A stretch of DNA of 64,000 nt from Candidatus Buchananbacteria bacterium (GTDB taxonomy: Bacteria > Patescibacteriota > Patescibacteriia > 2-01-FULL-39-33), in the NCBI GenBank assembly GCA_041666945.1, contig JBAYFY010000001.1:55813-119812 (forward strand), written 5' to 3'. Position 1 is the stretch's first letter; every line of letters begins with the position of its first letter. Below are positions 27,690-44,618 of the stretch, in pieces. The notes beneath the pieces were generated by a model. That model ran no database searches. It had not been told where the DNA came from and was given only the letters and a program-made list of their open reading frames with translations. A program made the translations under genes and the position numbers.

Positions 27690-29594
27690 ATGTTTACTCC
27701 CGAAGATATCAACAAACAAACAACCCCGCCGCCGGTCGGCTATGCTCCGCCGCCAGCGCCAACGCCGCAACAAAAGAAACAAACAGAACTCAAAGAGTTG
27801 CAAACGGCGCGTGAAGTTTTAGAAGAGGAGAGAATTTATCGGCGCGGCGTCGTTTCCGTCCGGGATTTAATAGCTCCGGCCGCTTTGGAAGTCAATTCCG
27901 ATCATATCAGGTTGGGTGAACTTTACATTAGGACCATCTTTGTTTTTGAATATCCGCGTTATATCGCTGTCGGCTGGTTTGCGCCGATTATCAATATGGA
28001 TATTGAGGCGGACATGGCCATGTATTTTTTTCCGGTCAAAGCCGCGGTCATTTTAAAGCAGCTAAAGAAAAAAGTCGGCGTATTAGAGGCGACAATTATT
28101 GGCGCGGCGGAAAAAGGCGCGCCTCGCGATCCTCTGGCCGAAACTGCTTTGCGCGATATGGAAAAGTTGCGCGATGATCTGACCCAGGGCATTGAGCATT
28201 TTTTCCAATTCTCGCTATATGTGACGCTATATGCCAAAACACTGGAGGAATTGGATAAGACCTCGGAACGCATTGAGAATTTTTTCGGCGGCACTTTGAT
28301 TTTCTCCCGCCGGGTATTCTATCAGGCCGAGCAAGGTTTCAATTCCACTTTGCCCATGGCGTATGACGAACTCCAGGTTTATATCAACCTTAATTCTTCA
28401 CCGGCCGCTTCTTCCTTCCCGTTCGTTTCTTCCGATTTGACTTCCGATCATGGCATTCTGTACGGCATCAACCGCCACAATAACAGCTTAATCCTGTTTG
28501 ACCGTTTTTCCCTGCAGAACGCCAACTCCGTGGTGTTTGCCACTTCCGGCGCCGGCAAGTCCTATACGATTAAATTAGAGGTCTTGCGCAGCATGATGTT
28601 CGGCACCGATGTGATTATCATTGATCCGGAACGCGAATATAACCATTTGTGCGAAGCTGTTGGCGGCACTTACATTGACATCTCGCTTAATTCTGAAGGC
28701 AAAATCAATCCTTTTGATCTGCCTCGCGCTATTGGCGAAGACGCCAAACCGGCGGATATTATCCGCAATGCCGTTATCACTGTTAAGGGGCTGGTGCGAT
28801 TAATGATTGGTGATGTGACGCCGGAAGAGGACTCCATTATTGACCGCGCGCTATTAGAGACCTATGCCAAGAAAGATATTACGCCCGATGCCGATTTACG
28901 CACCGTGGAGCCGCCCATTATGCAGGATTTCCAGGATATCCTGGAGGGCATGGAAGGCGGCAACAATATTGTTTTGCGGCTCAAGAAATACACTGAAGGC
29001 ACTTTCTCCGGCTTGCTCAATCATCCGACTAACGTCCAATTGAATAATCAGCTGGTGGTTTTTTCCGTCCGCGATTTGGAAGATGAACTAAAGCCGCTGG
29101 CGATTTACACCATTGTCAATTATATTTGGAATATTGTCCGTTCGGAAATGAAGAAAAGGATTTTGGTGGTGGATGAGGCCTGGTGGCTGATGCAACGCGA
29201 GGATTCGGCCAAATTTATTTTTGCTTTAGTCAAGCGTTGCCGCAAATATTACTTGGGCGTTACGACTATCACCCAGGATGTCAATGATTTTCTGACTTCT
29301 CCCTACGGCCAAGCCATCGTCAATAATTCCGCCATTCAATTGCTGCTCAAGCAATCTCCGGCGGCCATTGATTTGGTGCAAAAAACGTTCCTATTAACCG
29401 AGGGCGAAAAATATTTGCTATTGGAGGGCGCGGTAGGCGAAGGCATTTTCTTTGCCGGCGCCAAACATGTGGCGGTTAAAGTTGTGGCTTCCTATTCCGA
29501 AGACCAATTGATTACTTCCGACCCGCGGCAATTATTGGAAATTGAGGCGGCCAAGAAAGAGTTTGCCGAAGCGATGCTGTCGCAGAATAATTAG
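27690..29594 (+). CDS. VirB4-family T4SS ATPase, central and C-terminal ATPase portion
   Basis: ...YIRTIFVFEYPRYIAVGWFAPIIN..., Walker A FATSGAGKSYT, Walker B LVVDEAWWLM, and ...GVTTITQDVNDF. Confidence 0.85.
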   Translation: MFTPEDINKQTTPPPVGYAPPPAPTPQQKKQTELKELQTAREVLEEERIYRRGVVSVRDLIAPAALEVNSDHIRLGELYIRTIFVFEYPRYIAVGWFAPIINMDIEADMAMYFFPVKAAVILKQLKKKVGVLEATIIGAAEKGAPRDPLAETALRDMEKLRDDLTQGIEHFFQFSLYVTLYAKTLEELDKTSERIENFFGGTLIFSRRVFYQAEQGFNSTLPMAYDELQVYINLNSSPAASSFPFVSSDLTSDHGILYGINRHNNSLILFDRFSLQNANSVVFATSGAGKSYTIKLEVLRSMMFGTDVIIIDPEREYNHLCEAVGGTYIDISLNSEGKINPFDLPRAIGEDAKPADIIRNAVITVKGLVRLMIGDVTPEEDSIIDRALLETYAKKDITPDADLRTVEPPIMQDFQDILEGMEGGNNIVLRLKKYTEGTFSGLLNHPTNVQLNNQLVVFSVRDLEDELKPLAIYTIVNYIWNIVRSEMKKRILVVDEAWWLMQREDSAKFIFALVKRCRKYYLGVTTITQDVNDFLTSPYGQAIVNNSAIQLLLKQSPAAIDLVQKTFLLTEGEKYLLLEGAVGEGIFFAGAKHVAVKVVASYSEDQLITSDPRQLLEIEAAKKEFAEAMLSQNN

Positions 29595-29659: not shown

Positions 29660-30229
29660 ATGCTTGAAGATCGACGACGATTGGTACTGATTATTTTAGC
29701 TATTGCCATAGTGCTATCTTTAGCAGTAGCTTTATGGTTGATATTCGGACCTCAAAAAAAACCCCAGAATCAACAAACCGGGTCGACACCGCAGGTGGAG
29801 ACAGGTGGCAGCGCCGCTACTTTCGGCTTGCCGGCAGCGCCGCCGGAGCGTTTGGAACAGGAAAACGATTATCCCATCGGCTTAAAGCAATTAGCCATGT
29901 CTTTTGCCGAACGCTATGGCAGTTATTCCACTGACGAACCGCAAAAAAATATCAAGGATTTGGAATCGCTTATGACTGTGACAATGTATAAAACGTCTTT
30001 GGCCCAAACGCCGGTTATCGGCGCGGCCGGGTTTTCCGGTTACTCGGTCAAAGCGCTTTCTGCCGATTTGCAAAGCGTAAAAACCGATTCAGCGGCAGTA
30101 TTAGTCAAAACCCAAGTCACGCAAACCAGCGGCGACGGCATTACGCCCAATGTTTACTATCGCAACTTGCAATTAACTTTTATTAAATCCGGCACAGAAT
30201 GGCTGGTGAATCAGGCGAAATGGCAATAA
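29660..30229 (+). CDS. Small bitopic membrane protein (189 aa), possible VirB8-like/NTF2-like T4SS component
   Basis: N-terminal TM LVLIILAIAIVLSLAVALWLIF plus a ~150-aa extracytoplasmic domain. Its position is right after VirB4. The assignment rests on topology and context only. Confidence 0.5.
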   Translation: MLEDRRRLVLIILAIAIVLSLAVALWLIFGPQKKPQNQQTGSTPQVETGGSAATFGLPAAPPERLEQENDYPIGLKQLAMSFAERYGSYSTDEPQKNIKDLESLMTVTMYKTSLAQTPVIGAAGFSGYSVKALSADLQSVKTDSAAVLVKTQVTQTSGDGITPNVYYRNLQLTFIKSGTEWLVNQAKWQ

Positions 30230-30879
30230 ACAATATTAAAGAACAGATCGCCGATTTGTTGTTTCCGCGTTACTGCCTAAGCTGTCGGCGGGAAGGTGAG
30301 TGGTTGTGCGAGAAGTGCTTGATAACTTTGCCGGTCGGAAAAAGGCAATTGTTTTTGCCGGTCGGTGTTGGTGGAATAGAAGTTACGGCTTTATTTGATT
30401 ATGATCAATTACTGATGGGCAAGATTATCGCCGCCTTAAAATATAATTTTGCCTTTGATCTGTCGCGAACCGTTCATCGTTTGGTGAGTGAAGTAAAATT
30501 GACAGAACAAATAGGCAATGATCCCACAGTTTTAGTTCCAGTGCCCCTGCATCGTCGTCGGTATCTTTGGCGCGGATTTAATCAGGCGGAAATAATCGCA
30601 CAAGCCCTGGCGGCCGCTAATTCTTCTTGGTCAGTTTGTCCGGATTTGCTTAGGCGAGTTATTTACTCTAAGCCGCAAGTCGGACAAAAACAAAAAGATC
30701 GGGTTAGAAGCGTGCAAGGAGTGTTCCGGATCAATTTGGAGCGATTAAGCGATAATTGGAATAAACGTATTATCTTGGTTGATGATGTTTTAACCACGGG
30801 CTCTACTTTAAGCGAATGCGCCGAAGTTTTAAAAACCGCTGGATTCGCTGAAATTAGCGGTTTTGTCTTGGCTACATGA
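30220..30879 (+). CDS. comFC: ComF family protein (ComFC; phosphoribosyltransferase-domain competence protein)
   Basis: N-terminal zinc finger CLSCRREGEWLCEKC and PRTase motif ILVDDVLTTGSTLSE. Start at MAINNIKEQ, overlapping the upstream ORF by 10 nt. Confidence 0.85.
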   Translation: MAINNIKEQIADLLFPRYCLSCRREGEWLCEKCLITLPVGKRQLFLPVGVGGIEVTALFDYDQLLMGKIIAALKYNFAFDLSRTVHRLVSEVKLTEQIGNDPTVLVPVPLHRRRYLWRGFNQAEIIAQALAAANSSWSVCPDLLRRVIYSKPQVGQKQKDRVRSVQGVFRINLERLSDNWNKRIILVDDVLTTGSTLSECAEVLKTAGFAEISGFVLAT

Positions 30880-32235: not shown

Positions 32236-34314
32236 ATGCTAATCCGACTTCCTTCTATGAACTTATCACTTGATAGCCAGATCAGCCAGATTAGCCCTTA
32301 CGCCAAGCGGTTGGCTAATAAATTAAAGAAGTTAAACATTGAGACCGTTCGGGATCTCATTTTTTATTATCCTTTTCGTTACGAAGATTACAGCCGTTTG
32401 TCCAAAATAGCTGATTTGCGCGAGGGCTTGGAAGCGGCGGTAGTCGGACGTTTGGAATTGGTAGCCAATCGCCGCAGCCACCGGCAGAGAAAAATCATCA
32501 CTGAAGCGGTTTTGACTGACGATAGCGGCTCCATTAAGCTCGTTTGGTTTAATCAGCCCTGGGTGGGCAAAACCCTAACTGGCGGGGAAATTGTCAGGGT
32601 TTACGGCAAAGTTAGCGGGGATATGTTTAATTTGCATTTTAATTCCCCCAATTATGAGCGCGCGACCGCTATCGCTCCGGGAATTGTGCCGGTTTATCCT
32701 TTGACTTCCGGTCTAAGCAATAAACAATTGCGTTTTTTATTGTCCACGCTTAAGCCGCTTTTGGCAAAAGTTTACGATTATCTGCCTATTGAGATAATTA
32801 AACGGCAGAATTTGATCAATCTGTCATCCGCTCTGATTAATATTCATTGGCCGGAAAATGCCAGCGCCTTGGCCGCGGCGCGTCATCGTTTGGCCTTTGA
32901 TGAACTGTTTCTACTTCAAACCTGGTCGCAAATACTGCGACGCAATCTGAAAGAGTTGCAGGCGCCGGCGATTGAATTCAAGGAAACGAAAATAAAAGAA
33001 TTCATAGCGCAGTTGCCGTTTGAATTGATGTTGGACCAAAAGCGCGCCGCTTGGGAAATTATCAAGGACTTGGCTAAGACCGAGCCCATGAATCGGTTGA
33101 TGGAAGGCGATGTCGGTTCGGGAAAAACCGTAGTGGCTTTGATCGCCATGTATAATACTATCTTAAACGGCCAACAGGCGGTCTTGATGGCGCCGACCGA
33201 AATCCTTGCTAATCAGCATTATCAAAATTTAAGCCGGCTGTTAGCCGGTTATAAAATTAATACCGGCCTATTGACCCGAACACAAAAAGTGTTCAATAAT
33301 GGAGAGGTTGGTAAAAAAGAATTTTTAAATAAAATAGCCGCCGGGGGAATAGATTTGATTGTCGGTACTCATGCCCTGATTCAGAAAGAGGTGGTTTTTA
33401 AACAACTGGGGCTGGTCGTCGTAGATGAACAGCATCGCTTTGGCGTCAAACAAAGACAGGAATTAAAGCAGAAGGGCGCCGGCAATAAAATTCCGCATTT
33501 TTTATCTTTAACCGCCACGCCCATACCGCGTTCTTTGGCTTTGATAGTTTACGGCGATTTGGATTTGTCCATCATTCGGGAAATGCCCAAAGGCAGGAAA
33601 GCGATTATAACCAAGGTGGTACCGCCGGATAAACGACTGTTGGCTTATGAATTCCTTGGCAAACAAGCGGCCGCCGGCCGGCAGATATTTGTGATTTGCC
33701 CCTTAATTGACCCTTCGGATAAGCTGGGTGTGCGATCGGTTACCGAAGAATTCCATAAATTAGATAAAGAAGTTTTCCCGCAGCTCCCGGTAGGGTTACT
33801 GCATGGAAAACTGAAGACGGAAGAAAAAGAGGAAGTGATGGCTCGGTTTAAGGATAATGAAGTAAAAATTTTAGTTTCCACTTCAGTGGTGGAAGTCGGG
33901 GTGGATATCCCTAACGCTACCGTCATGATGATCGAAGGCGCGGAAAGATTCGGTTTGAGCCAGTTGCATCAATTCCGCGGTCGCGTGGGGCGAGGGGAGA
34001 GTCAATCGTACTGTTTTTTGTTTTCTGAAGATCCCTCGGATCGGGCTTTGGCGCGATTGAATTATTTGTCGCAAACCACCGACGGTTTTGCTTTGGCTGA
34101 ATACGATATGAAACAACGCGGCGGCGGCAATGTTTTCGGCCTGGAGCAATCGGGCTTTATTGATAATTTAAAAATCGCCGATCCCGGCGATTTGGCTTTA
34201 GCGAAAAAAGCGCGCGATGCCGCTAAAGATTTTACGGCTGAATTCAAATTGGAAGATTTTCCTCGGTTAGCCGAAGCGGTCAGTCAGTTCGGTTTGACGG
34301 CACACTTAGAGTAG
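32236..34314 (+). CDS. recG: ATP-dependent DNA helicase RecG
   Basis: Wedge/OB N-terminus. Helicase motifs DVGSGKTVVAL and VVVDEQHRFGV, and ...VSTSVVEVGVDIPNATVMMIEGAERFGLSQLHQFRGRVGRG. Confidence 0.9.
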   Translation: MLIRLPSMNLSLDSQISQISPYAKRLANKLKKLNIETVRDLIFYYPFRYEDYSRLSKIADLREGLEAAVVGRLELVANRRSHRQRKIITEAVLTDDSGSIKLVWFNQPWVGKTLTGGEIVRVYGKVSGDMFNLHFNSPNYERATAIAPGIVPVYPLTSGLSNKQLRFLLSTLKPLLAKVYDYLPIEIIKRQNLINLSSALINIHWPENASALAAARHRLAFDELFLLQTWSQILRRNLKELQAPAIEFKETKIKEFIAQLPFELMLDQKRAAWEIIKDLAKTEPMNRLMEGDVGSGKTVVALIAMYNTILNGQQAVLMAPTEILANQHYQNLSRLLAGYKINTGLLTRTQKVFNNGEVGKKEFLNKIAAGGIDLIVGTHALIQKEVVFKQLGLVVVDEQHRFGVKQRQELKQKGAGNKIPHFLSLTATPIPRSLALIVYGDLDLSIIREMPKGRKAIITKVVPPDKRLLAYEFLGKQAAAGRQIFVICPLIDPSDKLGVRSVTEEFHKLDKEVFPQLPVGLLHGKLKTEEKEEVMARFKDNEVKILVSTSVVEVGVDIPNATVMMIEGAERFGLSQLHQFRGRVGRGESQSYCFLFSEDPSDRALARLNYLSQTTDGFALAEYDMKQRGGGNVFGLEQSGFIDNLKIADPGDLALAKKARDAAKDFTAEFKLEDFPRLAEAVSQFGLTAHLE

Positions 34315-35637
34315 TCCCATTATCTCGCTAACATGCTTTACGGGTAGAAGTTTTAGTTTTTCCGCCGTTGCTTCCTGCCGAGCGGGGATAATGGCTTTAA
34401 TATAGCCGAGGCGCTCCGCTTCCTTAAGCCGGCGGGTTAATTGCGGCACGGTACGGATCTCCCCGGATAGTCCCACCTCGCCTAAAATCAAGGTTTTGCC
34501 GGGCAAGGGCTTTTCCATAAAAGCGGAAACAATTGCCGCAGCCACCGCCAGATCCGCTGACGGTTCTTTTATTTTTAAGCCGCCGGCGACATTAAGATAA
34601 ACGTCCTGGTTGCTTAAGTTAACTTTATTGTATTTGCCAATAACCGCCAGAAGCATCTGCAGGCGATTAAGATCAAAGCCCGTGGTTTTGCGTTGCGGAT
34701 AACCGAAAAAGGTCTTGGCGGTTAACGATTGTACCTCCACGAGAAACGGCCTGGTGCCCTCAAGCACCATGGTAGCGCCGATGCCCGGGTTGCCCGATGA
34801 CAGTTCTTTATCGGCAAAAATTCCCGCCGGATCGTTGACCTCTTTTAGTCCGCCGCCGGTCATTTCAAAAACCCCGATTTCGCCCACGGCGCCGAAACGG
34901 TTTTTGACGGCTCGTAAGATTTTAAAATTATTTTGCGCGTCATTTTCCAGATACATCACCGTATCCACTAAGTGTTCCAAAGTTTTCGGTCCGGCGACTT
35001 GGCCGTCTTTGGTGACATGGCCGATAATTAGGACGGCGATGTTGTTTATTTTGGCCAGCGACATCAGTTTGGCGGTGCAGGACGTGATTTGCCCCACGTT
35101 GCCGGCCGCGCCGGGAGAGTCAGCCGTGTAGACCGTCTGAATTGAGTCCACTATTAATAATTGCGGCTTAAGCGCGGTGGCCGTGGCGATGACGGCGTCG
35201 ATATCGGTTTGCGGCAAAAATTTTAATTTGCTCAAATCATTAGTTAAGCGTTCGGCGCGCATTTTTATTTGCGCCGCCGATTCCTCGCCGGAAACATACA
35301 AGACGGAATTAAGTTGGCCAACCAATTGCAAAGCTAAAGTGGATTTGCCGATTCCCGGGTCGCCGCCTAAAAGCATTAAAGCGCCATTAACAATGCCGCC
35401 GCCCAAAACGCGATCTACTTCGTTCAGGCCGGTAAGGGTTCTGGTTTCTTTGCCCCCGATTATGGTTGATAAGTCAATAGTTTCTTCCGCTCGGGCCGTA
35501 TTAGCCGAATTTTCTGATTTTTTTCGTTCTTCAGACAAAGTCCCCCAAGCGCCACAATCAAGACAGCGCCCTTGCCACTTAGGGTATTGGGCGCCGCATT
35601 TGGAACAGGAAAAGACGGTTTTGATGTTGGCTGGCAT
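34306..35637 (-). CDS. radA: DNA repair protein RadA/Sms
   Basis: N-terminal zinc finger CSKCGAQYPKWQGRCLDCGAW, RecA-like Walker A GGDPGIGKSTLALQ, KNRFG motif, and a Lon-like C-terminal domain. The stop overlaps recG by 9 nt (convergent). Confidence 0.9.
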   Translation of the reverse strand: MPANIKTVFSCSKCGAQYPKWQGRCLDCGAWGTLSEERKKSENSANTARAEETIDLSTIIGGKETRTLTGLNEVDRVLGGGIVNGALMLLGGDPGIGKSTLALQLVGQLNSVLYVSGEESAAQIKMRAERLTNDLSKLKFLPQTDIDAVIATATALKPQLLIVDSIQTVYTADSPGAAGNVGQITSCTAKLMSLAKINNIAVLIIGHVTKDGQVAGPKTLEHLVDTVMYLENDAQNNFKILRAVKNRFGAVGEIGVFEMTGGGLKEVNDPAGIFADKELSSGNPGIGATMVLEGTRPFLVEVQSLTAKTFFGYPQRKTTGFDLNRLQMLLAVIGKYNKVNLSNQDVYLNVAGGLKIKEPSADLAVAAAIVSAFMEKPLPGKTLILGEVGLSGEIRTVPQLTRRLKEAERLGYIKAIIPARQEATAEKLKLLPVKHVSEIMGLL

Positions 35638-35643
35638 AATTGT

Positions 35644-36855
35644 TTATGGAGTGCTGTTGCCGTTATAATAGTTCATTACTTTATTAACATAATCTCTGGT
35701 TTGCCCGTAACCGGCATTTTGGCAGCATTGGTAGCTTAGGTATCCTTTGCAATTTGTGCTGTTGCTGACAGCGCCCTTGCCGCCATTATAGGCCGCCGCC
35801 GCTCGCGTAAGATCTTTTTCGTTGCTATTTTTTACGTATTTAGCGGCCAATTTAATACTCAAATCCACCCCGGCCTGGCCTTTAAGTTCGTCGCAACTTA
35901 CTTTACGTCCGGCCAATCCGCTGGCAGTTGTCGGTAAAATTTGCATAATACCGCAAGCATTTGATTTACTGGTGCCCACATTGGCGTTGCCGCTTGATTC
36001 TTGAGACATGATGGCTTTTAACAGTTTTGGATCCACACCCTCTGCGGCTGCGGCGGCTTTGATTTGCGAATCGTAAGCGTCGCAATTGGAGCAAGTCATT
36101 GGCTTATTTACACCGTCTTTTTTGTAATCCCAAGCCGTACCATTGGGGGCGCTAAGGCAAGGATCGTTCTTATCGGGGGCAATTTGCTTGCCCTGATTTT
36201 TTAAGTTATTTTGTTGAGTTTCCGTGGAGATGCCGGCATTACCAGCAAGAATCACCGGTTCAAATTCCTGTCCGGTTATAACCGTCAAGTTAGGGTTAAT
36301 AATACTAATTAACGTATAAGATAGCAAGGCCAAGGCCAATCCGGCCAAAGCGGAAAAAATTATGGATTTGGCATCGGTTATTTTGCCGCCATCGCCGCGC
36401 GCCAGAAGCCATTTGAATCCGCCCCACATGACCATAATCGTTGCGAGTATGCCAACTGTTCCCAATAATAATGCGTACCAGGTGTTAATGTAGCTGGGCA
36501 GAAGATCCGCATTAACCGGAATTTTAGCGCCGGCCGTAAAAAGGCCGCCGATGGCCACGTTAGGAGTAAAAGTAAAAGACGCTCCACTATCTTGATCAAT
36601 GGTTTTTGTTGAACCAATGTTCACAGTGGTGTCGGAAGGCGTTGATTGGCCCCATTCCGCCGCCCCATTGGGATAGGTGATGGAGCATTGGTGAATACAG
36701 CCGCTGATTTGTTCTTGAGTCCAATCCGCTCCTGAATCGTAACAACCATCAAGGCATTGCTGATATTCAGTTTTGTTGTCGGCCAAAACCGCTGCCGGCA
36801 GCAACAGATTAAAAACCAGAGCAATAGTTAAAAATGTTTTCAGTAAATATCTCAT
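35644..36855 (-). CDS. Secreted Cys-rich protein: two-helix hydrophobic hairpin module fused to a C-terminal SLT lytic transglycosylase domain (VirB1/TraG-like)
   Basis: Signal peptide. Hairpin WYALLLGTVGILATIMVMWGGFKWLLARGDGGKITDAKSIIFSALAGLALALLSYTLISIINP. SLT motif AIMSQESSGNANVGTSKSNACGIMQI...AAYNGG. Confidence 0.7.
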   Translation of the reverse strand: MRYLLKTFLTIALVFNLLLPAAVLADNKTEYQQCLDGCYDSGADWTQEQISGCIHQCSITYPNGAAEWGQSTPSDTTVNIGSTKTIDQDSGASFTFTPNVAIGGLFTAGAKIPVNADLLPSYINTWYALLLGTVGILATIMVMWGGFKWLLARGDGGKITDAKSIIFSALAGLALALLSYTLISIINPNLTVITGQEFEPVILAGNAGISTETQQNNLKNQGKQIAPDKNDPCLSAPNGTAWDYKKDGVNKPMTCSNCDAYDSQIKAAAAAEGVDPKLLKAIMSQESSGNANVGTSKSNACGIMQILPTTASGLAGRKVSCDELKGQAGVDLSIKLAAKYVKNSNEKDLTRAAAAYNGGKGAVSNSTNCKGYLSYQCCQNAGYGQTRDYVNKVMNYYNGNSTP

Positions 36856-36877
36856 AATTATTAATATAAAAAATAAT

Positions 36878-37927
36878 TCAATTTTTCATAATCTCCCATT
36901 CCACCAATTCTTGATTCATACTGGTTAAACGCAAAGGCATATTCATGCCTTCCAACTGATAAACTCCGCCGACAATCAAGTCGGGAGAAATTTTTAAGGT
37001 GTCCATCAGTAACATTTCGTCAGCGGCTAAAGGATTGGTGGAAATGCTGAATTTGTTATTAGCCAGTTGGTTTAATTCCAACGGGCCCAAACTAAGGTTA
37101 TTCAAGGTGGTGCCCAGAGTGGCCAAATCGCTTATTTCTTGAGTTGAGAGCAATTCATATTGCAGGCAAGACCCCATTTCGGCGCTCGCGGGCAGAGTGG
37201 CGGCGTTTTCGCTGTTGCAATATGGTTTATAAATTTCAAAACCGGATTTTTTTAAGGTGGCTCTGACTTTTTGTTCGGTTTCAGGCAGGATTTGTTTGCC
37301 CAGTTGGTCTTGAAAAAGTTTTTTTAATTCCGCATCAGTCAACGGCGTGTAATTTTGCACTATGGGTTCCCGGCCCTCAAAATTTATATTGCTAAGGTCG
37401 GGGTTAACGATGGATATCAAAGTATAAGACAATAAAGCCAAAGCCAGACCGGCCAAAGCGGAAAAAATCATGGATTTGGCATCGGTAATTTTGCCGCTGT
37501 CGCCGCGCGCCAGAAGCCACTTGAATCCGGCCCACATAATCATTATCGTAGCCACAATGCCGATTACCCCCAGCATCAAGTCATACCAGGCCTTGATATA
37601 ATTACCCAATAAATTTTCGTTGACATTACCGCCCATAAAGGCGCCGATAGGCACGTTGAGAATTAAATCTCCGCTTTGGGCCGCAGTGGCGGCATCTGAT
37701 GCTGCTAATTGCGCATTTTGCGCCGCCTCATATTCGTTTTTGCAAAGGGAAAAATCGTCAGCGGCTTGTTGTTGGCAGGCCGTATCATCAGATTCGCAGT
37801 TATCAAGTTGGTCTTGCTGTTGTTTTAAGCAATCATCAATATAATTCGCTTGAGCCGCAATCCAAGGAAAAAGCAAAAGATAAGAGGCAAAATAAATAAT
37901 CGCTAAGATTGGGATTTTTCTGTTCAT
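36878..37927 (-). CDS. Paralogous secreted Cys-rich protein with the same two-helix hairpin module but no SLT domain (candidate VirB2/TrbC-like pilin-type subunit)
   Basis: WYDLMLGVIGIVATIMIMWAGFKWLLARGDSGKITDAKSMIFSALAGLALALLSYTLISIVNP is about 85% identical to the module in 35644-36855. The two modules are also near-identical at the nucleotide level. Confidence 0.65.
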   Translation of the reverse strand: MNRKIPILAIIYFASYLLLFPWIAAQANYIDDCLKQQQDQLDNCESDDTACQQQAADDFSLCKNEYEAAQNAQLAASDAATAAQSGDLILNVPIGAFMGGNVNENLLGNYIKAWYDLMLGVIGIVATIMIMWAGFKWLLARGDSGKITDAKSMIFSALAGLALALLSYTLISIVNPDLSNINFEGREPIVQNYTPLTDAELKKLFQDQLGKQILPETEQKVRATLKKSGFEIYKPYCNSENAATLPASAEMGSCLQYELLSTQEISDLATLGTTLNNLSLGPLELNQLANNKFSISTNPLAADEMLLMDTLKISPDLIVGGVYQLEGMNMPLRLTSMNQELVEWEIMKN

Positions 37928-39162
37928 GGCAAATCAATTTTATAAATGCGGTTATTGGAACCATCAGTGAAAAATAATGATTTGGGCGAAGAAGCGTTGT
38001 ACATAATATTGGCAATACTACCTTGGCGGGTTGGCGTGGCAATAATTGTCTGTTGGCCTGTCGTTAAATCAATCTGGTAAATATCATCAGTCAGAGTATC
38101 GGCCACGCTACGATCAATGTCGGCGCCATTGGGCAAATCGCGCGGAACGGCGCAGTAAAGCGTATCATTGCCGGCGAAAGAGCATTTGTCCGGCCAAGTG
38201 TTTAAGGAAAGCGCTTGGCGGTTAGTGCCGATATTATCACCATGAGCGTCGGAAATCCACAGTTGCGGCTTGAAATCTGTCATATTGTGCACACTATAAA
38301 GCAGGCGTTCGCCATTGGGCGACCATTCGCTTTGAAACCCTCGGCCCTCCACAATCATGGATTTGAAGTTTTCACCATTTAAACCGATGAGATAAATTTC
38401 AGAACGGTTGAGATCCTTACCCTCGTTAAAAGTTGCTACCACTTGATTATTTGGTGACCAATTAGGTTGGACTTGGTTTTCAATACCGCCGATACTTTCT
38501 AGAATTTGAGGATTGGAACCGTCATAGTTGGCGGCGACTAAAAAACGATTTTCCACGTCCAGGGCCATGTTTTTGAATAGTATCTGCTCATTATTGGCCG
38601 AAAAATCAAAATCTTCCCAATGCTCGGGCAGAGTGATTTGTTTTTCTGTATTAAAGTCATAAACAGTGTTGGAACCGTCAGGATATTCCAATATAGCTTT
38701 ATTACCCTTGCTATCCCAAGTGGCATTACTGATATTATAGAATATTTGGTCGCTCAAAGCAGTGATATTGCCGTTACTGTCCACGCGATAAAATTTGCCG
38801 TCTTTAGAATTATAATAACTGATTGTCCCGTCGGAGGTCATGAAAGAAAAATAAGCCGGATCTTTAACGATAGCGCTTACAGCCGTTAGTCCGCCTTGAG
38901 CTGTTTTGGTGACCGCAGGCACTGAAGCAGTAATTTGCCCGGGAGATTGGGGCAGGAAACCGGATTGCGCCGCTATTTGCTGATTGCCGGCGCCGGCTTC
39001 AGGCAGTTGGCCGATGGTGGTAGTGGCAGTTTGTTCAGTCGGCAGAGTGCTGGCAGGAGCAAAGAAAGGCAGCCAAAAAAACCAATAAATAAAAAACACC
39101 AATAAAACGGCGGCGCCGATAATTAGGGCGAAAACCCCAATTTTTTTCCAATCAAGATTCAT
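37924..39162 (-). CDS. Membrane-anchored TolB-like beta-propeller protein (PD40/WD40-like repeats)
   Basis: N-terminal TM. Repeated DGxxxxY / WSPNG blades: SDGTISYYNSKDGKFY, DSKGNKAILEYPDGSNTVY, WSPNNQVVATF, WSPNGERLLYS. Confidence 0.65.
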   Translation of the reverse strand: MNLDWKKIGVFALIIGAAVLLVFFIYWFFWLPFFAPASTLPTEQTATTTIGQLPEAGAGNQQIAAQSGFLPQSPGQITASVPAVTKTAQGGLTAVSAIVKDPAYFSFMTSDGTISYYNSKDGKFYRVDSNGNITALSDQIFYNISNATWDSKGNKAILEYPDGSNTVYDFNTEKQITLPEHWEDFDFSANNEQILFKNMALDVENRFLVAANYDGSNPQILESIGGIENQVQPNWSPNNQVVATFNEGKDLNRSEIYLIGLNGENFKSMIVEGRGFQSEWSPNGERLLYSVHNMTDFKPQLWISDAHGDNIGTNRQALSLNTWPDKCSFAGNDTLYCAVPRDLPNGADIDRSVADTLTDDIYQIDLTTGQQTIIATPTRQGSIANIMYNASSPKSLFFTDGSNNRIYKIDLP

Positions 39163-39179
39163 ATATGTGATATTTATTA

Positions 39180-39842
39180 TTAACCGCCATCCTCAATTTC
39201 CCCCTCGTTTTCGCCGGCAGTAGCGCCGCTTGACGGTTGCGGACCAGCGTCTTGAGCGCTCGGCGAGGCGGCGGGAGCAGCCGCCGGGGAGCCGGTGTTA
39301 CTTTCCTGAACGCATTCCAAACTCCCGCTGATTAATTTTTCCGGGTCATTGATTAGGTAGCTTATGGCGCCGTTAAGATAGAATGACCAGCCGCATTTTT
39401 CATAAGCGTAATACATGCTGCCGCCAATCATAATAACAATAAGAAGCAGTAGAATAACTACCCAAAGCCACCAAGTTCCGGCGATAAAAGTCAAGGCCAT
39501 CCAAACATACCTGACTGTTTTGACGGTTTTCGCGGCTTGTTGGATTTTTTGTTTCGCTTCACTGGTTTCTTCAGCGGCTTTAGCGGCAGTATTGGCGGCT
39601 TGAGCTTTTTCAGAATTAAGCATGTCGGCCTGATTATCATCCGAAGAAGCTGAATTGGATCGGCTATTTTTGCTTTGTTGGTTTTCTGTTTGTCCGAACG
39701 CGGCTGAACGGCGGCCCAAGGCAGTATCCACCGAAGAAAAATCATCAGCGCGAATCAATTCATTACGCTTGGCGTTTTTTTGGCTGTTTATTTGATTGGC
39801 TATATTTGCCTCATCTATTATAACCCGTTCATCATCCGCCAT
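39180..39842 (-). CDS. Hypothetical bitopic membrane protein (220 aa)
   Basis: Charged N-terminus, TM VWMALTFIAGTWWLWVVILLLLIVIMIGG, and an Ala/Pro/Ser-rich acidic tail. Confidence 0.5.
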   Translation of the reverse strand: MADDERVIIDEANIANQINSQKNAKRNELIRADDFSSVDTALGRRSAAFGQTENQQSKNSRSNSASSDDNQADMLNSEKAQAANTAAKAAEETSEAKQKIQQAAKTVKTVRYVWMALTFIAGTWWLWVVILLLLIVIMIGGSMYYAYEKCGWSFYLNGAISYLINDPEKLISGSLECVQESNTGSPAAAPAASPSAQDAGPQPSSGATAGENEGEIEDGG

Positions 39843-40105
39843 AATAAAGATGTAATAATTACACTTTTATTATACCATTTTTTACCTTTAATCACAAAAT
39901 GTCGCTGACTATGATTTTTTTCTGTCCGACGATTTTCTTATTCTGACCATTTTAACAATTTTTTTTTGACTGCAGGCAATCGGCAGTGATAGCGCAAAGA
40001 TGGTTTTTTAGAATCAACGCAAAGCTTTGATTAGGTACAGGATTGCATTAAAGATAGATTTTATGTTGTAATTAAAATAGTAATTTCTCAAAATAGCTAA
40101 AATGT

Positions 40106-40276: not shown

Positions 40277-42934
40277 ATGCTGGTAAAACAGCCCATCAAG
40301 TTTTTTCAGGTTGCGATTTTCGTCGTAAGCGGCCTGTCTTTGTTTTTAATTTTGTCTGCGCCTGCCTTATCCTGGACCGGTCCGACAGATGATCCGCCTA
40401 ATGGCAATGTCGCGGCGCCGCTTAATCAATCCACGCTTTTCAGCGGCGATGTTATTTCCGGCAGATGGAATACGTTAACAATTACTCCCGATAACTGCAG
40501 TATCGCCTCTTTAGTCGGTTGGAACGGCACTAAATTGGCGTGCACTTCCACTTCGCCAACTTCTGGAGGGATCAGCGGCCGAGTCAATTACTTGTCTAAA
40601 TTTATCACCACTAGCACGCTGGGTGAGTCCTCTATTTTTGACAACGGCAATGTCGGTATAAACGATGTGACTCCTGAAGCTACTTTAGTGATAAAAAGAG
40701 CCGGCGGGGGGGCTACCAATACTTGGTTGCGTGTCCATGATACCTCGGCTAATCCCGAGATTCAGTTGCAATATTCCAGTGGCGTCAATGACCATTGGGG
40801 TATTTATAATAATCAGACCGAAGATGCTTTTAGAATTTGGGGCGGCGGCAATGATCGTTTTTCTATTCTGCAAAACGGCAATATCGGTATCGGCAAAAAT
40901 GCTCCCGTTGCCAAATTAGATGTGGCTGGCACGGTCAGTTCAACCGGTTTGCAAGTTAATGGTTTAATAAGAGCGAGCAGTTTAGTCGGCAGCGGGGTTC
41001 GTTGCTTGCAAACTAGCGCTACCGGCCAAATTTCTGCCACTGCCGCGGCTTGCGGTATCGGATCGGGCGGAAGCGGCGGTGTTAATTACGGTTTGTCTGG
41101 GCAAGTTGCCTATTATCCGGCTAATGGCACGAATGTTACCGGCACCTCGGCTTTAATCATTGATAATGCCAACAATCGGGTTGGTTTAGGCGCGGCTCCA
41201 GCGACTAATCATCGCTTTCTAGTTAAATCGGCCGGTGTTTTGAGTTATGCGATGAAGATTTTGGATTCCAGCGGCAATATACCGCTTTTATCAATTGTTG
41301 ATCTTGGTACGTCAGCTTTGGGCTCTATGGTGGGTATTGGTGTTGACACTCCGGCTGAAATGTTAGAAATAGCAGCCCCCACCAGCGCCAAAACGGCCAG
41401 GGTGCGTATTACCGATACTGTGAATAATCCGGAATTGCAATTGCAATATGGCACCAGTAATGAACATTGGTCAATATATAATCGCAATGCGGGGATTACC
41501 GGTTACCCCGATACAGCAGACAGTTTAAATATTTGGAGCAAAGGTTCCGATAACGGTGGGGATCGTGTTACTCTTACCCAAAATGGCTTTGTCGGAATCA
41601 ATAACAATACTCCGCAGAAAAGGTTGCATATAGGTCCGGGCTTAACTTATTATCCGGCTTCGGCATTAGCGATTACAGAGAGTCCGGCCACACCTTGGAA
41701 TCCTGCCGCTGGAGCGGCTATGGAATTTGATACTATTGCGAATACGGATAGTTATGGCGAGGGCGGCGGGATCGGTTATGACGCCCCTAAAAATGATCCG
41801 GCGCGCGGCATGGAATTTTATGTCGGTCGGACAGACCCCAGCAGTGTTGCTGGTTGGGGCAACGGTTTAACGGCCGTGAAAATTCAAAGCGTCAATGGTT
41901 ATGTCGGCGTGGGAAATTGGAATCCCACTTCTCTGCTATCCATATCCAACCAAAGTATTTATTGGAAGAGACCAACAATAGCCAATAAAGACGTTTTTTT
42001 GGATTTAAGCACTTATAAAACGGAAAATAATAACGGCTTGCGTTGGTCTGTCGGTCCGTCGACCAGCAGCCAAGATTTGTGGTGGTTGTATCGGCCGGCT
42101 AATTCCACTAATTTGGTTTTAGCAACCGGCGACAACAACCCCGCTAATAGCGTAATGACCTTTTTGTCCGATGGAAGAGTAGGCATAGGAACCAGTAGCC
42201 CGGCCTCCACCCTAAGTGTGGTTGGTGATAGCACTACGGGTTATGGTATTGCTCAGCCCGATGGCGCCACTGTTTATGTTAAGAATACTCACATTACTTC
42301 CGGCTTGGAATATTCTTTTGGTGTTATAGCCGAAGGTTATACGGCAGGAGTGTTAGGAATGTCTGCCAGTGATACGGGCATTGGTTTGTATGGCAGTAGT
42401 TCCGGAGGAGAGGGGGTGCAGGGTTGGACGGAAAGCGGCGCAGCAATTTCTGGAAATTCTACCGAGAATAGCGGTTTGTCAGGTACTTTTAGCGGGGGAA
42501 AAGGTTTAAAAATTAATCGTTCTCTCAACGAAAAAGCCGGAGGTTATGCAATCATAGGCGCCTGGCCGGATAGTACGCAAAGCGGTTCATGGATGGCTTT
42601 GCAACTATCAGGGAATGAAATCTCTCAAGGTAATTACAACTTGTTGTCATCGCCTGATAATACCAACCTTTATATTAATCGTCCTTCTGATAGGAATATA
42701 TATTTTAGAGAAAATAATGCCGATCAAATGATTATAAGCACCGGAGGCAATGTGGGTATCGGCTTAACTGCGCCGACGCAGAAACTCCAGGTTAACGGCG
42801 TGGTTCGAGCGACTGGTTTTATGGCCGGTTCGGCCACCGGCATAAGCAGAACGGTGCGAGTCAAAGGAAGCAATGGCGCTAATTGCAATTTAGTTTTTAC
42901 TAATGGCCTCTTAACCAGTGAAACCTGTCCTTAA
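40277..42934 (+). CDS. Secreted fibre-like repeat protein (885 aa) with seven G-x-VGIG...P...L.V.G repeats (tail-fibre-like)
   Basis: Signal peptide. Repeats DNGNVGINDVTPEATL, QNGNIGIGKNAPVAKLDV, QNGFVGINNNTPQKRL, SMVGIGVDTPAEML, NGYVGVGNWNPTSL, DGRVGIGTSSPASTLSV, GGNVGIGLTAPTQKLQV. Tandem ~55-aa NPE(I/L)QLQY...HW(G/S)IYN units. Confidence 0.7.
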   Translation: MLVKQPIKFFQVAIFVVSGLSLFLILSAPALSWTGPTDDPPNGNVAAPLNQSTLFSGDVISGRWNTLTITPDNCSIASLVGWNGTKLACTSTSPTSGGISGRVNYLSKFITTSTLGESSIFDNGNVGINDVTPEATLVIKRAGGGATNTWLRVHDTSANPEIQLQYSSGVNDHWGIYNNQTEDAFRIWGGGNDRFSILQNGNIGIGKNAPVAKLDVAGTVSSTGLQVNGLIRASSLVGSGVRCLQTSATGQISATAAACGIGSGGSGGVNYGLSGQVAYYPANGTNVTGTSALIIDNANNRVGLGAAPATNHRFLVKSAGVLSYAMKILDSSGNIPLLSIVDLGTSALGSMVGIGVDTPAEMLEIAAPTSAKTARVRITDTVNNPELQLQYGTSNEHWSIYNRNAGITGYPDTADSLNIWSKGSDNGGDRVTLTQNGFVGINNNTPQKRLHIGPGLTYYPASALAITESPATPWNPAAGAAMEFDTIANTDSYGEGGGIGYDAPKNDPARGMEFYVGRTDPSSVAGWGNGLTAVKIQSVNGYVGVGNWNPTSLLSISNQSIYWKRPTIANKDVFLDLSTYKTENNNGLRWSVGPSTSSQDLWWLYRPANSTNLVLATGDNNPANSVMTFLSDGRVGIGTSSPASTLSVVGDSTTGYGIAQPDGATVYVKNTHITSGLEYSFGVIAEGYTAGVLGMSASDTGIGLYGSSSGGEGVQGWTESGAAISGNSTENSGLSGTFSGGKGLKINRSLNEKAGGYAIIGAWPDSTQSGSWMALQLSGNEISQGNYNLLSSPDNTNLYINRPSDRNIYFRENNADQMIISTGGNVGIGLTAPTQKLQVNGVVRATGFMAGSATGISRTVRVKGSNGANCNLVFTNGLLTSETCP

Positions 42935-42950
42935 TTTCGTCAACTTAATC

Positions 42951-44618
42951 ATGCCTAATCGTGTTTTTAAATATGGATCACTGACCATGCTTACGGCCAT
43001 TATTGTTTTGGCTGGGGTATTAGCTTGCCGCTTAGCTTTCATGCAAGAAGCAACTGTAGTTTATGATGTTGCCGGCTGGCTATGGAGCGATAATTACGGC
43101 TGGATATCATTGCATTATCAAAATGCGGAATTATCCGAAGGCGGGGATACCAGGGCTTACAGAGTTCAATTAGATAGCGATAATAATCTGATTGGGTATG
43201 GTTGGTCGGAATATGTGGGCTGGATTTGTTTCGGTTTCACTTGCTCCAGTTCGGGTATTGGTGGTACTCCCATCGGCGGTTGGAGCGCCAATTATGACCC
43301 AATAACCAAAAAAGTTTCCGGCTGGGCTGGTATCGTTTCGGTAAAAAGCGATGGTTATTTATATTTAGGCGGTTCTTTAGCGGGCAGCGGCTCTTTGATT
43401 AATGGCGTTGGTCAGACCTGCTACGATTGCAATACTAATAATGAAGAGGGGGCGTTGAATTGCCATACTTGTTTTGCTCGCGTTCGGTTTGATGGCGAAA
43501 ATATACCGGAAGCTAATGTTACTTCCACCGTCGGCGGCAGCGGCTCAATTTGTTTCAATTGCACTGGTTGTCAGACCTCAACCAACGCCTTAGGCGCTGG
43601 TCGAATTGTGTGCAGTTCCGGCTGTGAAAGCTGTAAAAGTTACGGCACAGCAGTTAATGGCGCCAATGGCACGATTTTGGGTTGGGGCTGGAACGGTGAT
43701 GACACTAAATTAGTCGGCGCCGGTTGGGTGGAATTTAATGGCGCAGCTGAAATTGTCTATCCTTGGCTGCAAACGCAATTCGGTTCAGTTTACGGTTCTA
43801 ACTATATCAGACAAAGATTTGAAAAGGGCCGTAACGCCACTTATTGTATTTTTGCCAAGGATGTTTACAGTTTTACGACTGTCAATTGTCAGATACCTTA
43901 TTTTAGCGATGTTTCCATCGCTTTCCCCACAGAGCAAAACGGCGTTTATAAAAATGCTTTGGGGCAGATTGATTTGGTTGGCTTAACTACCGAATATAAA
44001 AAAATAGGCAATGTTCGTTATAATAAATATGATCAGGTGCTAAATATCAGCGCTAACGCCACTTGGAATGATAATAAGATTCTTAATAATGGCGTTTACG
44101 TCATTAATGGCGATCTGGTTATTGGCAGCGGCTTCAATATTGCCAATGCGGCAGGCAATCAAAGGGGCAATGGTTTGGTGGTAGTCAATGGCAATCTGAA
44201 TATTAATAGCAATTTCGGTTATGATTCCGGCCTGCCCGATGATTTGAAAAAGTTAGGTTCCGTAGCTTGGGTTATCAAGGGGGATGTTATAGTCGATCCC
44301 GCCGTAACCAATATCGCCGGCGCTTTTATGCTTTTAGGCAAAGACGGCGTCAGCGTTTGCCAGAGGAGCGGCGGTTCTGATGATTATCCTCAATATGCCG
44401 CCAATGGCTGCGGAGTGTTCTTCTCCAACCAAAGCAAAAATAAGTTGGAGGTGCTGGGCTTGATTATCGCCAGGGCTTTTGATTTCCGTCGCACCTATTC
44501 TAAATTGTCTCAAGGTTCGGAAAGAATTATTTATGATGGCCGTTTGATCGCTAATCCGCCCCCGGGACTTAAGGCCTTGGCTGAAAATCTGCCGGTGATT
44601 AGGGATTATCAGTATTAA
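42951..44618 (+). CDS. Secreted Cys-rich hypothetical protein (~555 aa), candidate pilus-associated adhesin
   Basis: Signal-anchor SLTMLTAIIVLAGVLA, many Cys pairs, and Asn/Gly-rich beta-like repeats. Start at the internal Met; the ORF track opens at 42918. Confidence 0.55.
   Translation: MPNRVFKYGSLTMLTAIIVLAGVLACRLAFMQEATVVYDVAGWLWSDNYGWISLHYQNAELSEGGDTRAYRVQLDSDNNLIGYGWSEYVGWICFGFTCSSSGIGGTPIGGWSANYDPITKKVSGWAGIVSVKSDGYLYLGGSLAGSGSLINGVGQTCYDCNTNNEEGALNCHTCFARVRFDGENIPEANVTSTVGGSGSICFNCTGCQTSTNALGAGRIVCSSGCESCKSYGTAVNGANGTILGWGWNGDDTKLVGAGWVEFNGAAEIVYPWLQTQFGSVYGSNYIRQRFEKGRNATYCIFAKDVYSFTTVNCQIPYFSDVSIAFPTEQNGVYKNALGQIDLVGLTTEYKKIGNVRYNKYDQVLNISANATWNDNKILNNGVYVINGDLVIGSGFNIANAAGNQRGNGLVVVNGNLNINSNFGYDSGLPDDLKKLGSVAWVIKGDVIVDPAVTNIAGAFMLLGKDGVSVCQRSGGSDDYPQYAANGCGVFFSNQSKNKLEVLGLIIARAFDFRRTYSKLSQGSERIIYDGRLIANPPPGLKALAENLPVIRDYQY

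Follow-up and report, generated by a model that had tools for sequence, protein, structure and literature searches.

Genes A and B encode long proteins built on a shared pilin-like module

We examined two adjacent genes, A and B, in a 64-kb stretch of DNA (hereafter the window) from a Candidatus Buchananbacteria bacterium, a member of the ultrasmall Patescibacteria. A, B, p220, p412 and similar designations are names used in this analysis, and L001 to L040 label the homologous loci in other genomes that we used for comparison. The original prediction, made from the letters of the window alone, had placed a tandem gene pair at positions 35644-37927, and both open reading frames (ORFs) match these coordinates exactly, on the minus strand:

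35644..36855, minus strand: gene A, an ORF of 403 amino acids (aa) with a signal peptide, a twin-CX3C helical hairpin, a VirB2-type pilin hairpin, a disordered linker and an SLT lytic transglycosylase domain
36878..37927, minus strand: gene B, an ORF of 349 aa with a signal peptide, a four-cysteine helical hairpin, a pilin hairpin and an orphan C-terminal domain

The ORFs are separated by 22 nt. The product of A is identical to an NCBI protein annotated as "transglycosylase SLT domain-containing protein", and that of B to one annotated as "pilin" (Candidatus Buchananbacteria metagenome-assembled genome). Six-frame scans of the window with hidden Markov models (HMMs) and phmmer found no further hairpin copies or silent pilin cassettes and no SLT domain other than that of A; A and B are its only pilin-like ORFs.

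Hydropathy analysis gave both proteins the same layout, in which a signal-peptide-like segment is followed by a region of ~95 residues with four cysteines, a first transmembrane helix (TM1), a basic loop, a second transmembrane helix (TM2) and a C-terminal domain. The features of this module, with AlphaFold2 (AF2) helices and predicted local distance difference test (pLDDT) values, are:

36781..36855, minus strand: predicted Sec signal peptide of A (aa 1-25, ending AAVLA/DN; hydrophobic over aa 7-25; cleavage site placed by the AXA rule)
36676..36774, minus strand: N-terminal helix-loop-helix of A, CX3C...CX3C (C34, C38, C53, C57; AF2 helices 28-40 and 47-60, pLDDT ~80)
36292..36492, minus strand: pilin hairpin of A (aa 122-188; PF18895), consisting of TM1, the loop KWLLARGDGGKITDAKS, TM2 and INP (AF2 helices 118-151 and 156-186, pLDDT 90-94)
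37400..37600, minus strand: pilin hairpin of B (aa 110-176; PF18895; AF2 helices 105-139 and 144-174, pLDDT 86-96)

The N-terminal cysteine regions of A and of B were both modeled as a confident helix-loop-helix, and that of A is probably stapled by disulfides outside the cell. Both termini of the two proteins had been described as divergent and cysteine-rich. This description fits the N-terminal regions, with four cysteines each (C33, C44, C51 and C62 in B), and the C-terminal part of A, with eight, but not the C-terminal part of B, which has two.

To classify the hairpin, we compared both proteins with the Pfam pilin models. Both exceed the gathering threshold (26.6 bits) of the T4SS_pilin family PF18895, A at 30.7 bits (E = 3.2e-7) and B at 35.7 bits (E = 8.9e-9), each over positions 7-70 of a model of 71 positions, which bears out the proposed likeness to VirB2/TrbC pilins. 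The TrbC/VirB2 model PF04956 (gathering threshold 27.9 bits) matched B below threshold (17.0 bits, E = 0.0069) and did not match A. Since related long pilins reach E = 6.7e-8 with PF04956 and many short PF18895 proteins bear both Pfam labels, the relation of A and B to TrbC/VirB2 is transitive rather than direct. Of the properties expected of a VirB2-type pilin, the signal peptide, the two hydrophobic helices and the short basic loop are present (hydropathy, AF2 pLDDT 86-96), as is linkage to genes of a type IV secretion system (T4SS), with PrgI, TrsD and VirB4 lying 6-10 kb away and VirB6 unconfirmed. The exception is a small mature size, as A and B have 403 and 349 aa, with heads of 165-215 aa and N-terminal domains of ~95 aa.

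A Foldseek search of the B model against the PDB returned generic helical-hairpin matches only (E >= 0.15), and a profile of the hairpin retrieved no pilin from the PDB sequences. The hairpin had no holin match in PHROGs or Pfam. It is not a generic signal sequence either, because the N-terminus has a signal-peptide-like segment of its own, far ahead of the hairpin. In the topology that we predict, the N-terminal domain and the C-terminal head lie outside the cell and the basic loop is cytoplasmic, with TM1 running out-to-in and TM2 in-to-out, which is the VirB2 topology. This would be the sole arrangement that lets the SLT domain reach peptidoglycan.

The hairpins of A and B are alike and the rest of the proteins is not

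A and B are 42% identical over 224 aa (BLASTP, E = 8e-36), with the likeness confined to the hairpin and its immediate flanks. Within it, a 67-residue core (aa 122-188 of A, aa 110-176 of B) is identical at 55 of 67 positions (82%) and reproduces the consensus of the two-helix hydrophobic hairpin from which the pair had been recognised. The inter-helix loop reads KWLLARGD(G/S)GKITDAKS and is rich in lysine and arginine.

At the nucleotide level, an identity of about 85% had been claimed for this region. That figure holds for the best local segment, 84.9% over 146 nt (36308-36453 against 37416-37561). It does not hold over 36300-36480, where the identity is 78% in the correct register, which is offset by 1108 nt and not by 1110; taking the originally proposed coordinates literally gives 23%. 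The likeness is greatest in the central 90 nt of the core (91%) and lower in the TM1 part (65%) and at the end of TM2 (69%).

The head of A is a lytic transglycosylase with intact catalytic motifs

The C-terminal parts of the two proteins contain the following features:

35647..36105, minus strand: SLT domain of A, family-1 lytic transglycosylase (aa 251-403; PF01464)
35998-36000, minus strand: catalytic E286 of A, in the E-S motif (E286-S287), aligned to MltE E64
35941-35952, minus strand: GIMQ motif of A (aa 302-305)
35779-35793, minus strand: AYNGG motif of A (aa 355-359)
36106..36282, minus strand: tether of A (aa 192-250), ~60 flexible residues (pLDDT <50 over 202-227 and 234-246)
36881..37372, minus strand: orphan C-terminal head of B (aa 186-349), with homologues only in the sister genome L001/L009 (AF2 pLDDT mostly <50)

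The fusion of an SLT domain to the hairpin in A is real, as PF01464 matches aa 265-367 at 66.7 bits (E = 1.7e-18; threshold 21.3 bits). The catalytic glutamate, on whose presence the original prediction depended, is E286, which aligns with E64 of Escherichia coli MltE (3t36). In an alignment of 12 pilin-SLT fusions, E286, G302, M304, Q305 and Y356 are invariant and N357 nearly so (>=90%). The structural model of the SLT domain (pLDDT 90-98) matched MltE, Slt, MltF and MltC in Foldseek with probability 1.0 and TM-scores up to 0.68, the best match being MltE 3t36 (E = 6e-5, TM-score 0.67). NCBIfam matches of A are generic (BB0259 flagellar lytic transglycosylase, EmtA, Slt) and all far below their cut-offs. 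The base composition of the SLT cassette is not unusual (GC 0.466, against 0.451 for the window). The head of A is an active-looking family-1 lytic transglycosylase.

The same 12 fusions share residues between the hairpin and the SLT domain. All of them have N187 and P188 where TM2 ends, and nearly all have L190. In the tether, C233 is invariant, and the local motif LAGNAG (aa 203-208, 36232-36249) is a degenerate form of a conserved LPGSxG in which G205 and G208 are invariant. This motif may mark a site of processing or belong to the SLT module. Searches of Pfam, NCBIfam and PHROGs gave no match for the C-terminal head of B.

Pilin-hydrolase fusions recur across a branch of Patescibacteria

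A full HMMER scan of A against 1.84 billion cluster representatives gave 39 matches below 1e-30. Among the best 120 matches (50%-identity clusters), 117 carry PF18895, 85 carry SLT, five Phage_lysozyme, two YkuD and one Peptidase_M15_3. Fusions of the pilin module with SLT were counted in at least 83 protein clusters. Typical PF18895 proteins are 120-160 aa long, with a median of 2 residues beyond the hairpin; C-terminal heads are therefore a departure from the norm of the family.

A scan of GTDB species representatives recovered 39 loci, mainly from Buchananbacteria, Falkowbacteria and unclassified Patescibacteria, with some from Paceibacterota. About 20 of them combine a homologue of p412, the gene next to B (described below), with one or two long pilins near radA, recG, comF, VirB4, TrsD and PrgI. 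One member of the pair carries an SLT head in L006-8, L010-15 and L019, and the heads of the partners are LAS-like, phage-lysozyme, cysteine-rich or orphan domains across species. L006 and L013 have an SLT head together with a LAS-like head (called from a sequence motif only in the L006 partner), and L016 has a lysozyme head. Some species appear to combine a glycosidase head on one pilin with a peptidase head on the other. CHAP-like and SLT-like heads called from motifs in L016 and L023 were unconfirmed by Pfam, and we did not use them.

Two further observations concern the loci recovered. L027, L028 and L034 hold arrays of three to five long pilin-domain genes (370-550 aa) with hairpins 40-68% identical, a third arrangement between the homogenised pairs described below and the short, divergent arrays of Saccharibacteria. 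The records of L010, L012-L014, L025-L030 and L034 are titled "uncultured Gammaproteobacteria bacterium" and carry a Patescibacteria-type locus, so these labels are probably wrong.

Heads are exchanged between close relatives

The closest relatives of the window, L001/L009 and L003, have the same gene order, and their flanking sequences are 76-86% identical to those of the window at the nucleotide level. Their gene at the position of A keeps the N-terminal and hairpin module and carries an unrelated head instead of SLT; the L003 gene is without the cysteine domain. The exchanged segment is:

35644..36253, minus strand: exchangeable head cassette of A; the closest relatives have an unrelated LAS/M15-like peptidase module in its place

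In blastn comparisons, collinearity with L001 ends at 36254, just past the hairpin, and resumes at radA (35621). The alternative head has invariant H, D and H residues, a PDB profile match at E = 0.002 and sub-threshold matches to L-Ala-D-Glu peptidase and hedgehog N-domains; by these resemblances it probably belongs to the LAS/M15-type peptidases. The head of B is common to the window and L001, is replaced in L003 and has no other relative.

The hairpin pair is old, and its two copies evolve in concert

The original prediction had offered recent duplication or gene conversion as the source of the likeness between the hairpins. A recent tandem duplication is ruled out. Orthologues of both A and B occur in the same gene order in the syntenic relatives L001 and L003, and in a three-way comparison of the window with L001 and L003, each gene resembles its orthologues more than its paralogue (TM1 nucleotide identity 80-83% versus 65%), so the duplication is old. 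Pairs of long pilins are also found throughout the group.

Gene conversion is strongly supported, mainly by the pairs of other species and less by the pair of the window. In all 17 of 17 independent species-level pairs, the nearest relative of a hairpin is its partner in the same genome. Within-genome amino acid identity of the hairpins is 0.68-1.00 in these pairs, reaching 100% in five and 96% in four. In seven species with an SLT-bearing pilin and a partner, the hairpin of the SLT pilin is 0.74-1.00 identical to that of its own partner, SLT-pilin hairpins are 0.39-0.64 identical between species, and the SLT domains are orthologous at 0.33-0.62. Shared nucleotide tracts reach 99.8% over 432 nt in L013, 99.7% over 367 nt in L026, 97.7% over 216 nt in L025, 94.4% over 320 nt in L022 and 92.9% over 309 nt in L006, and the 3' halves of these pairs have no similarity. 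The arrays of Saccharibacteria show no such within-genome homogenisation. As read from sequence, this pattern is what recurrent gene conversion between tandem genes, or repeated transfer of the module between them, leaves behind.

In the window itself, A has B-like states at 5 of 8 informative sites within nt 81-154 of the core and at 2 of 15 outside this stretch, which was picked post hoc. Sites shared by A and B in a genome-specific manner are no commoner than in cross-genome controls. A conversion tract in this pair is thus suggested by the data at most.

The pair lies in a probable operon near a T4SS core

The genes and sites around A and B are:

37924..39162, minus strand: p412, 412 aa, with a transmembrane segment at aa 8-26 and a TolB-like beta-propeller (TIGR02800, E = 1.7e-9, partial); its stop overlaps the start of B (ATGA)
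39180..39842, minus strand: p220, a protein with a single membrane span, whose gene heads the probable operon and is conserved in close relatives only
39869..39897, minus strand: promoter-like site TTGTGA-17-TATAAT with an extended -10 TG, just upstream of p220; the best minus-strand match (10/12), by consensus match only
34306..35637, minus strand: radA (Pfam), 6 nt downstream of A and at the same position in L001, L003 and L007
26510-26953, plus strand: PrgI/VirB3-like gene (Pfam PrgI, E = 2.9e-8)
27002-27685, plus strand: TrsD-like part of VirB4 (NCBIfam TrsD, E = 5.8e-11)
27690-29594, plus strand: ATPase part of VirB4 (P-loop_TraG, E = 7e-31; NCBIfam CD1110-family VirB4, 355.8 bits, cut-off 325)
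30199-30879, plus strand: ComF-like gene, between the T4SS core and the pilin operon
32236-34314, plus strand: recG, between the T4SS core and the pilin operon
1816-2904, minus strand: dprA, further out
9590-21235, plus strand: ORF of 3881 aa, a surface protein with a CBM_4_9 carbohydrate-binding domain, directly upstream of the 1079-aa ORF
21266-24505, plus strand: ORF of 1079 aa with ~8 transmembrane segments within residues 1-440, shortly upstream of the T4SS core
25098-26507, plus strand: ORF of 469 aa adjoining PrgI, with no transmembrane segment, no Pfam match and a weak ATPase-like NCBIfam match
40277-42934 and 42918-44618: two large conserved ORFs with no Pfam match, between the pilin operon and the type IV pilus cluster
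44698-~57000, plus strand: type IV pilus cluster starting 5 kb beyond the pilin operon, with PilM and a PilB-type ATPase (48018-49760)

The most consistent companion of the pilins is p412. In ~20 species-level loci (L001, L003, L006-L008, L010-L014, L016, L017, L020-L026, L029 and L040), a homologue adjoins a single pilin gene or a pair, almost always on the upstream side. No Pfam family matched p412, which is probably a part of this type of T4SS that has yet to be described. On the other side of the pair, no terminator-like site was found on the minus strand between A and radA, and radA is probably co-transcribed with A. In L006 (9306-10001) and likewise in L012, a DsbA/thioredoxin-like gene lies between the p412 homologue and the pilin-SLT gene, an insertion that fits disulfide formation in extracellular domains containing cysteines.

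A VirB3/4/6 core had been predicted upstream of the pair. Its PrgI/VirB3 and VirB4 parts stand, with VirB4 split, as in Gram-positive systems of the pGO1 type, into one ORF for a TrsD-like N-terminal part and another for the ATPase, and the neighbourhood recurs in other species: linkage of the pilins to PrgI, TrsD and VirB4 was found in L003, L006, L011-13, L019, L025 and others. The VirB6 part is unconfirmed, as no profile matched and the ORF adjoining PrgI has no transmembrane segment. The 1079-aa ORF is the sole polytopic candidate and may be an "extended VirB6". The 469-aa ORF, which is not VirB6, is kept next to PrgI in L012, L013, L019, L025, L029 and L031. We also observed that the T4SS is persistently linked with genes of transformation and recombination (radA, recG, ComF-like, dprA), which could mean DNA uptake or processing.

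Comparison with described systems

A monoderm-type T4SS with VirB4, TrsD, PrgI/VirB3 and VirB6 is found across the phylum Patescibacteria, and VirB2-like pilins, detected with PF18895 and PF04956, were reported in 1,948 of its assemblies, with 441 arrays of 2-11 pilin genes at a mean identity of 25% and a maximum of 54% (Quinonero-Coronel et al. 2025, PMC12102498). The same study noted that T4SS loci of ABY1 commonly hold comF, recG and radA, and that VirB1 is not recognised in most Patescibacteria having VirB2 (PMC12102498). Southlakia cannot grow epibiotically without its pilin array and T4SS, and a pilus was raised as a possibility (Wang et al. 2023, PMC10633639; review PMC12857230); the T4SSs of Patescibacteria are the only ones known to be essential to their carrier (PMC10633639, PMC12857230). 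The window, with comF, recG and radA also present, is a typical T4SS locus of the ABY1 type, and this kind of system is already known. To our knowledge, the T4SSs of Patescibacteria are the only monoderm T4SSs with VirB2-like pilins.

A and B share with the VirB2-like arrays of Patescibacteria, such as those of Southlakia epibionticum ML1 and TM7x, the PF18895 domain and the arrangement of tandem genes near an MPF-FATA-type core of VirB4, TrsD and PrgI. They differ in that the pilins of the published arrays, and likewise those of the Saccharibacteria loci that we fetched, are short and very divergent, whereas A and B form a pair of long proteins (403 and 349 aa) with heads of 165-215 aa and hairpins that are 82% identical, and up to 100% identical in the pairs of other species. 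We found no mention of hydrolase-pilin fusions, long modular pilins or concerted evolution of pilin modules in the three sources (PMC12102498, PMC10633639, PMC12857230), in the searchable supplement or in full-text literature searches. Long modular pilins with hydrolase heads, exchange of these heads and concerted evolution of the hairpin thus appear to be undescribed.

Like VirB1, PrgK of pCF10 and TraG of pIP501, the SLT enzyme of A comes from a T4SS locus and is predicted to sit outside the membrane. Unlike VirB1-type enzymes, it is anchored by a VirB2-type hairpin rather than by a simple transmembrane helix or signal peptide, and it is fused rather than separate. The hydrolases of monoderm T4SSs are membrane-anchored and combine a glycosidase with a peptidase, SLT with CHAP (PMC12102498); here this combination is sometimes split over two pilins. 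The module resembles the TrbC/VirB2/TraA pilins in its signal peptide, two hydrophobic helices, short basic loop and weak but consistently placed PF04956 matches. It differs from them in belonging to a monoderm cell, in leaving the PF04956 threshold unreached and in size, A and B being about five times larger than canonical mature VirB2 pilins (64-74 aa).

More distant parallels exist for the modular design. In flagellinolysins (PMC5595980), the conserved assembly module of a filament subunit is likewise joined to an enzymatic domain, which makes, or could make, the filament itself an enzyme. The likeness is one of principle only, as the proteins and machinery are unrelated, the enzyme is an internal insertion there and a tethered C-terminal head in A, and the polymerisation of A is a proposal.

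Neisseria pilE/pilS and the CdiA-CT and Rhs polymorphic toxins combine a constant module with exchangeable C-terminal modules through recombination at the constant part. The present pair differs from these systems: scans of the window found no silent cassettes, the expressed copies are two only, and the heads are mostly wall hydrolases and not toxins with immunity genes.

A proposed role in opening the wall for the T4SS, and its alternatives

We propose, with a probability of roughly 0.6, that A is the VirB1 equivalent within the pilin pool, opening the cell's own wall for the T4SS or its pilus, and that the hairpins of A and B are alike through a shared assembly interface. A and B would be subunits of a chromosomal monoderm-type (MPF-FATA-like) T4SS typical of the Buchananbacteria/Falkowbacteria branch, each with a signal peptide that is cleaved off, an external helical hairpin stapled by disulfides, a VirB2-type membrane hairpin and an outer C-terminal head. 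The tethered SLT domain of A would cut glycan strands where the T4SS or pilus crosses the cell's own wall, because the enzyme would be physically part of the pilin pool, and B would present the same assembly module with an orphan head. If both proteins are handled by the same VirB3/VirB4/VirB6 machinery, or are packed side by side, their hairpins would for that reason be kept nearly identical. The means of this upkeep would be recurrent gene conversion between the tandem genes, with the heads free to be exchanged. This role is supported by the lack of any other recognisable hydrolase in the window, by the "missing VirB1" of the published survey, a gap that the fusion would fill, and by the apparent pairing of glycosidase and peptidase heads in some species, which recalls the bifunctional hydrolases of Gram-positive T4SSs.

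Several points weigh against this proposal. The enzymatic activity of A, the self wall as its target, the co-assembly of A and B and the formation of a pilus are elements that we infer. The TrbC/VirB2 model is matched below threshold only, and neither the PDB profile search nor Foldseek linked the hairpin to solved pilins. Polymerisation of subunits of 320-380 aa is uncertain, because canonical pilins are so much smaller and PF18895 proteins end after the hairpin. VirB4 is 6 kb away from the pilin genes and on the opposite strand, and these genes are apparently co-transcribed with radA and not with the T4SS core. The hairpins of the window are among the least homogenised pairs, and a local conversion tract is suggestive at best. 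Finally, very close relatives differ in the head, which is SLT in A and a LAS-like peptidase in its counterparts of L001 and L003. Turnover of this kind is more characteristic of genes of host interaction than of housekeeping assembly factors.

This last point leads to the alternative that survives best, although we consider it improbable on balance, at somewhat under half the weight of the VirB1 role. A and B would polymerise through their hairpins into a pilus on which every subunit displays its head, breaching the wall of a host bacterium, and head swapping would adapt the pilus to different host walls. The exchange of heads in close relatives and their diversity (SLT, lysozyme, YkuD, LAS-like, cysteine-rich and orphan) favor this explanation, as does the position of A and B as the sole pilin candidates in the window. 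In the solved T-, N- and F-pili the inter-helix loop is basic and faces the lumen, which suggests that both termini of A and B would lie on the outside. Further support comes from the essential role of the pilin array and T4SS of Southlakia in epibiotic growth, for which a pilus was proposed, from the precedent of proteolytic flagellins (PMC5595980) and from the resemblance of the SLT head to virion-associated lysins, which attack walls from outside. However, no pilus has so far been observed in the group, and the pairing of glycosidase with peptidase is equally used by Gram-positive T4SSs on their own wall. By a rough estimate, an 80-angstrom, 5-start pilus offers ~700 square angstroms of outer surface per subunit, which is tight for a head of 150 residues together with an N-terminal domain; full decoration of a pilus would be crowded but conceivable given the 60-residue tether.

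A combined version, which we regard as slightly less probable again, is a "self-drilling", enzymatically active pilus in one large branch of Patescibacteria. A constant VirB2-like stalk, held identical in the paralogues through gene conversion, would carry exchangeable lytic transglycosylase, lysozyme, LAS peptidase or YkuD peptidase heads, and the filament growing out of the membrane would cut first the cell's own wall and then that of the host. As part of it, the homogenised stalk sequence would serve as the recombination anchor for head swaps between strains.

It is doubtful, and in our view speculative, that the long proteins are propilins or polyproteins in which the hairpin is an export vehicle and the head is cut off near INP-x-L or LPGSxG, freeing a hydrolase and a short pilin. 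Processing is known for the propilins of TrbC and VirB2, typical PF18895 pilins stop right after the hairpin, and the conservation of N187, P188 and L190 at the end of TM2, together with that of LPGSxG in an otherwise disordered linker, could mark such sites. Against this, no gene for a TraF- or LepB-like protease was recognised in the operon, and the motif is degenerate in A (LAGNAG). It is also absent from B and from non-SLT heads, and LPGSxG is therefore more likely part of the SLT module.

Even less probable is that A and B are T4SS-independent, membrane-anchored autolysins, in which the hairpin would be a mere two-helix anchor for wall enzymes of growth or division and the proximity of the T4SS incidental. 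The distance and opposite strand of the pair relative to VirB4, with comF, recG and radA in between, and its apparent co-transcription with radA are what this explanation would expect. Yet the hairpin falls within the T4SS_pilin family, the VirB4/TrsD/PrgI neighbourhood recurs in many species, and strict within-genome homogenisation is hard to explain for a mere anchor. A holin-endolysin cassette left behind by a prophage, in which the hairpin would be a two-transmembrane holin and the SLT domain the endolysin, is effectively refuted: two transmembrane helices with a muralytic domain are superficially alike and the SLT domain matches phage lysin PHROGs, but the hairpin has no holin match, both proteins have N-terminal signal peptides and extracellular N-terminal domains, no phage genes lie nearby, tblastn found no relative in 50,697 phage and 72,556 plasmid records, and the chromosomal gene order is conserved across the group.

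The "pilin" of one large branch of Patescibacteria serves as a carrier module for putative wall-cutting enzymes, which offers an answer to the missing VirB1. The likeness of the two modules, kept by conversion, argues for a shared assembly interface, and the swaps of heads between close relatives suggest selection by whatever the apparatus encounters beyond the cell. Should the subunits polymerise, this would be the first enzymatically active pilus of the conjugative type.

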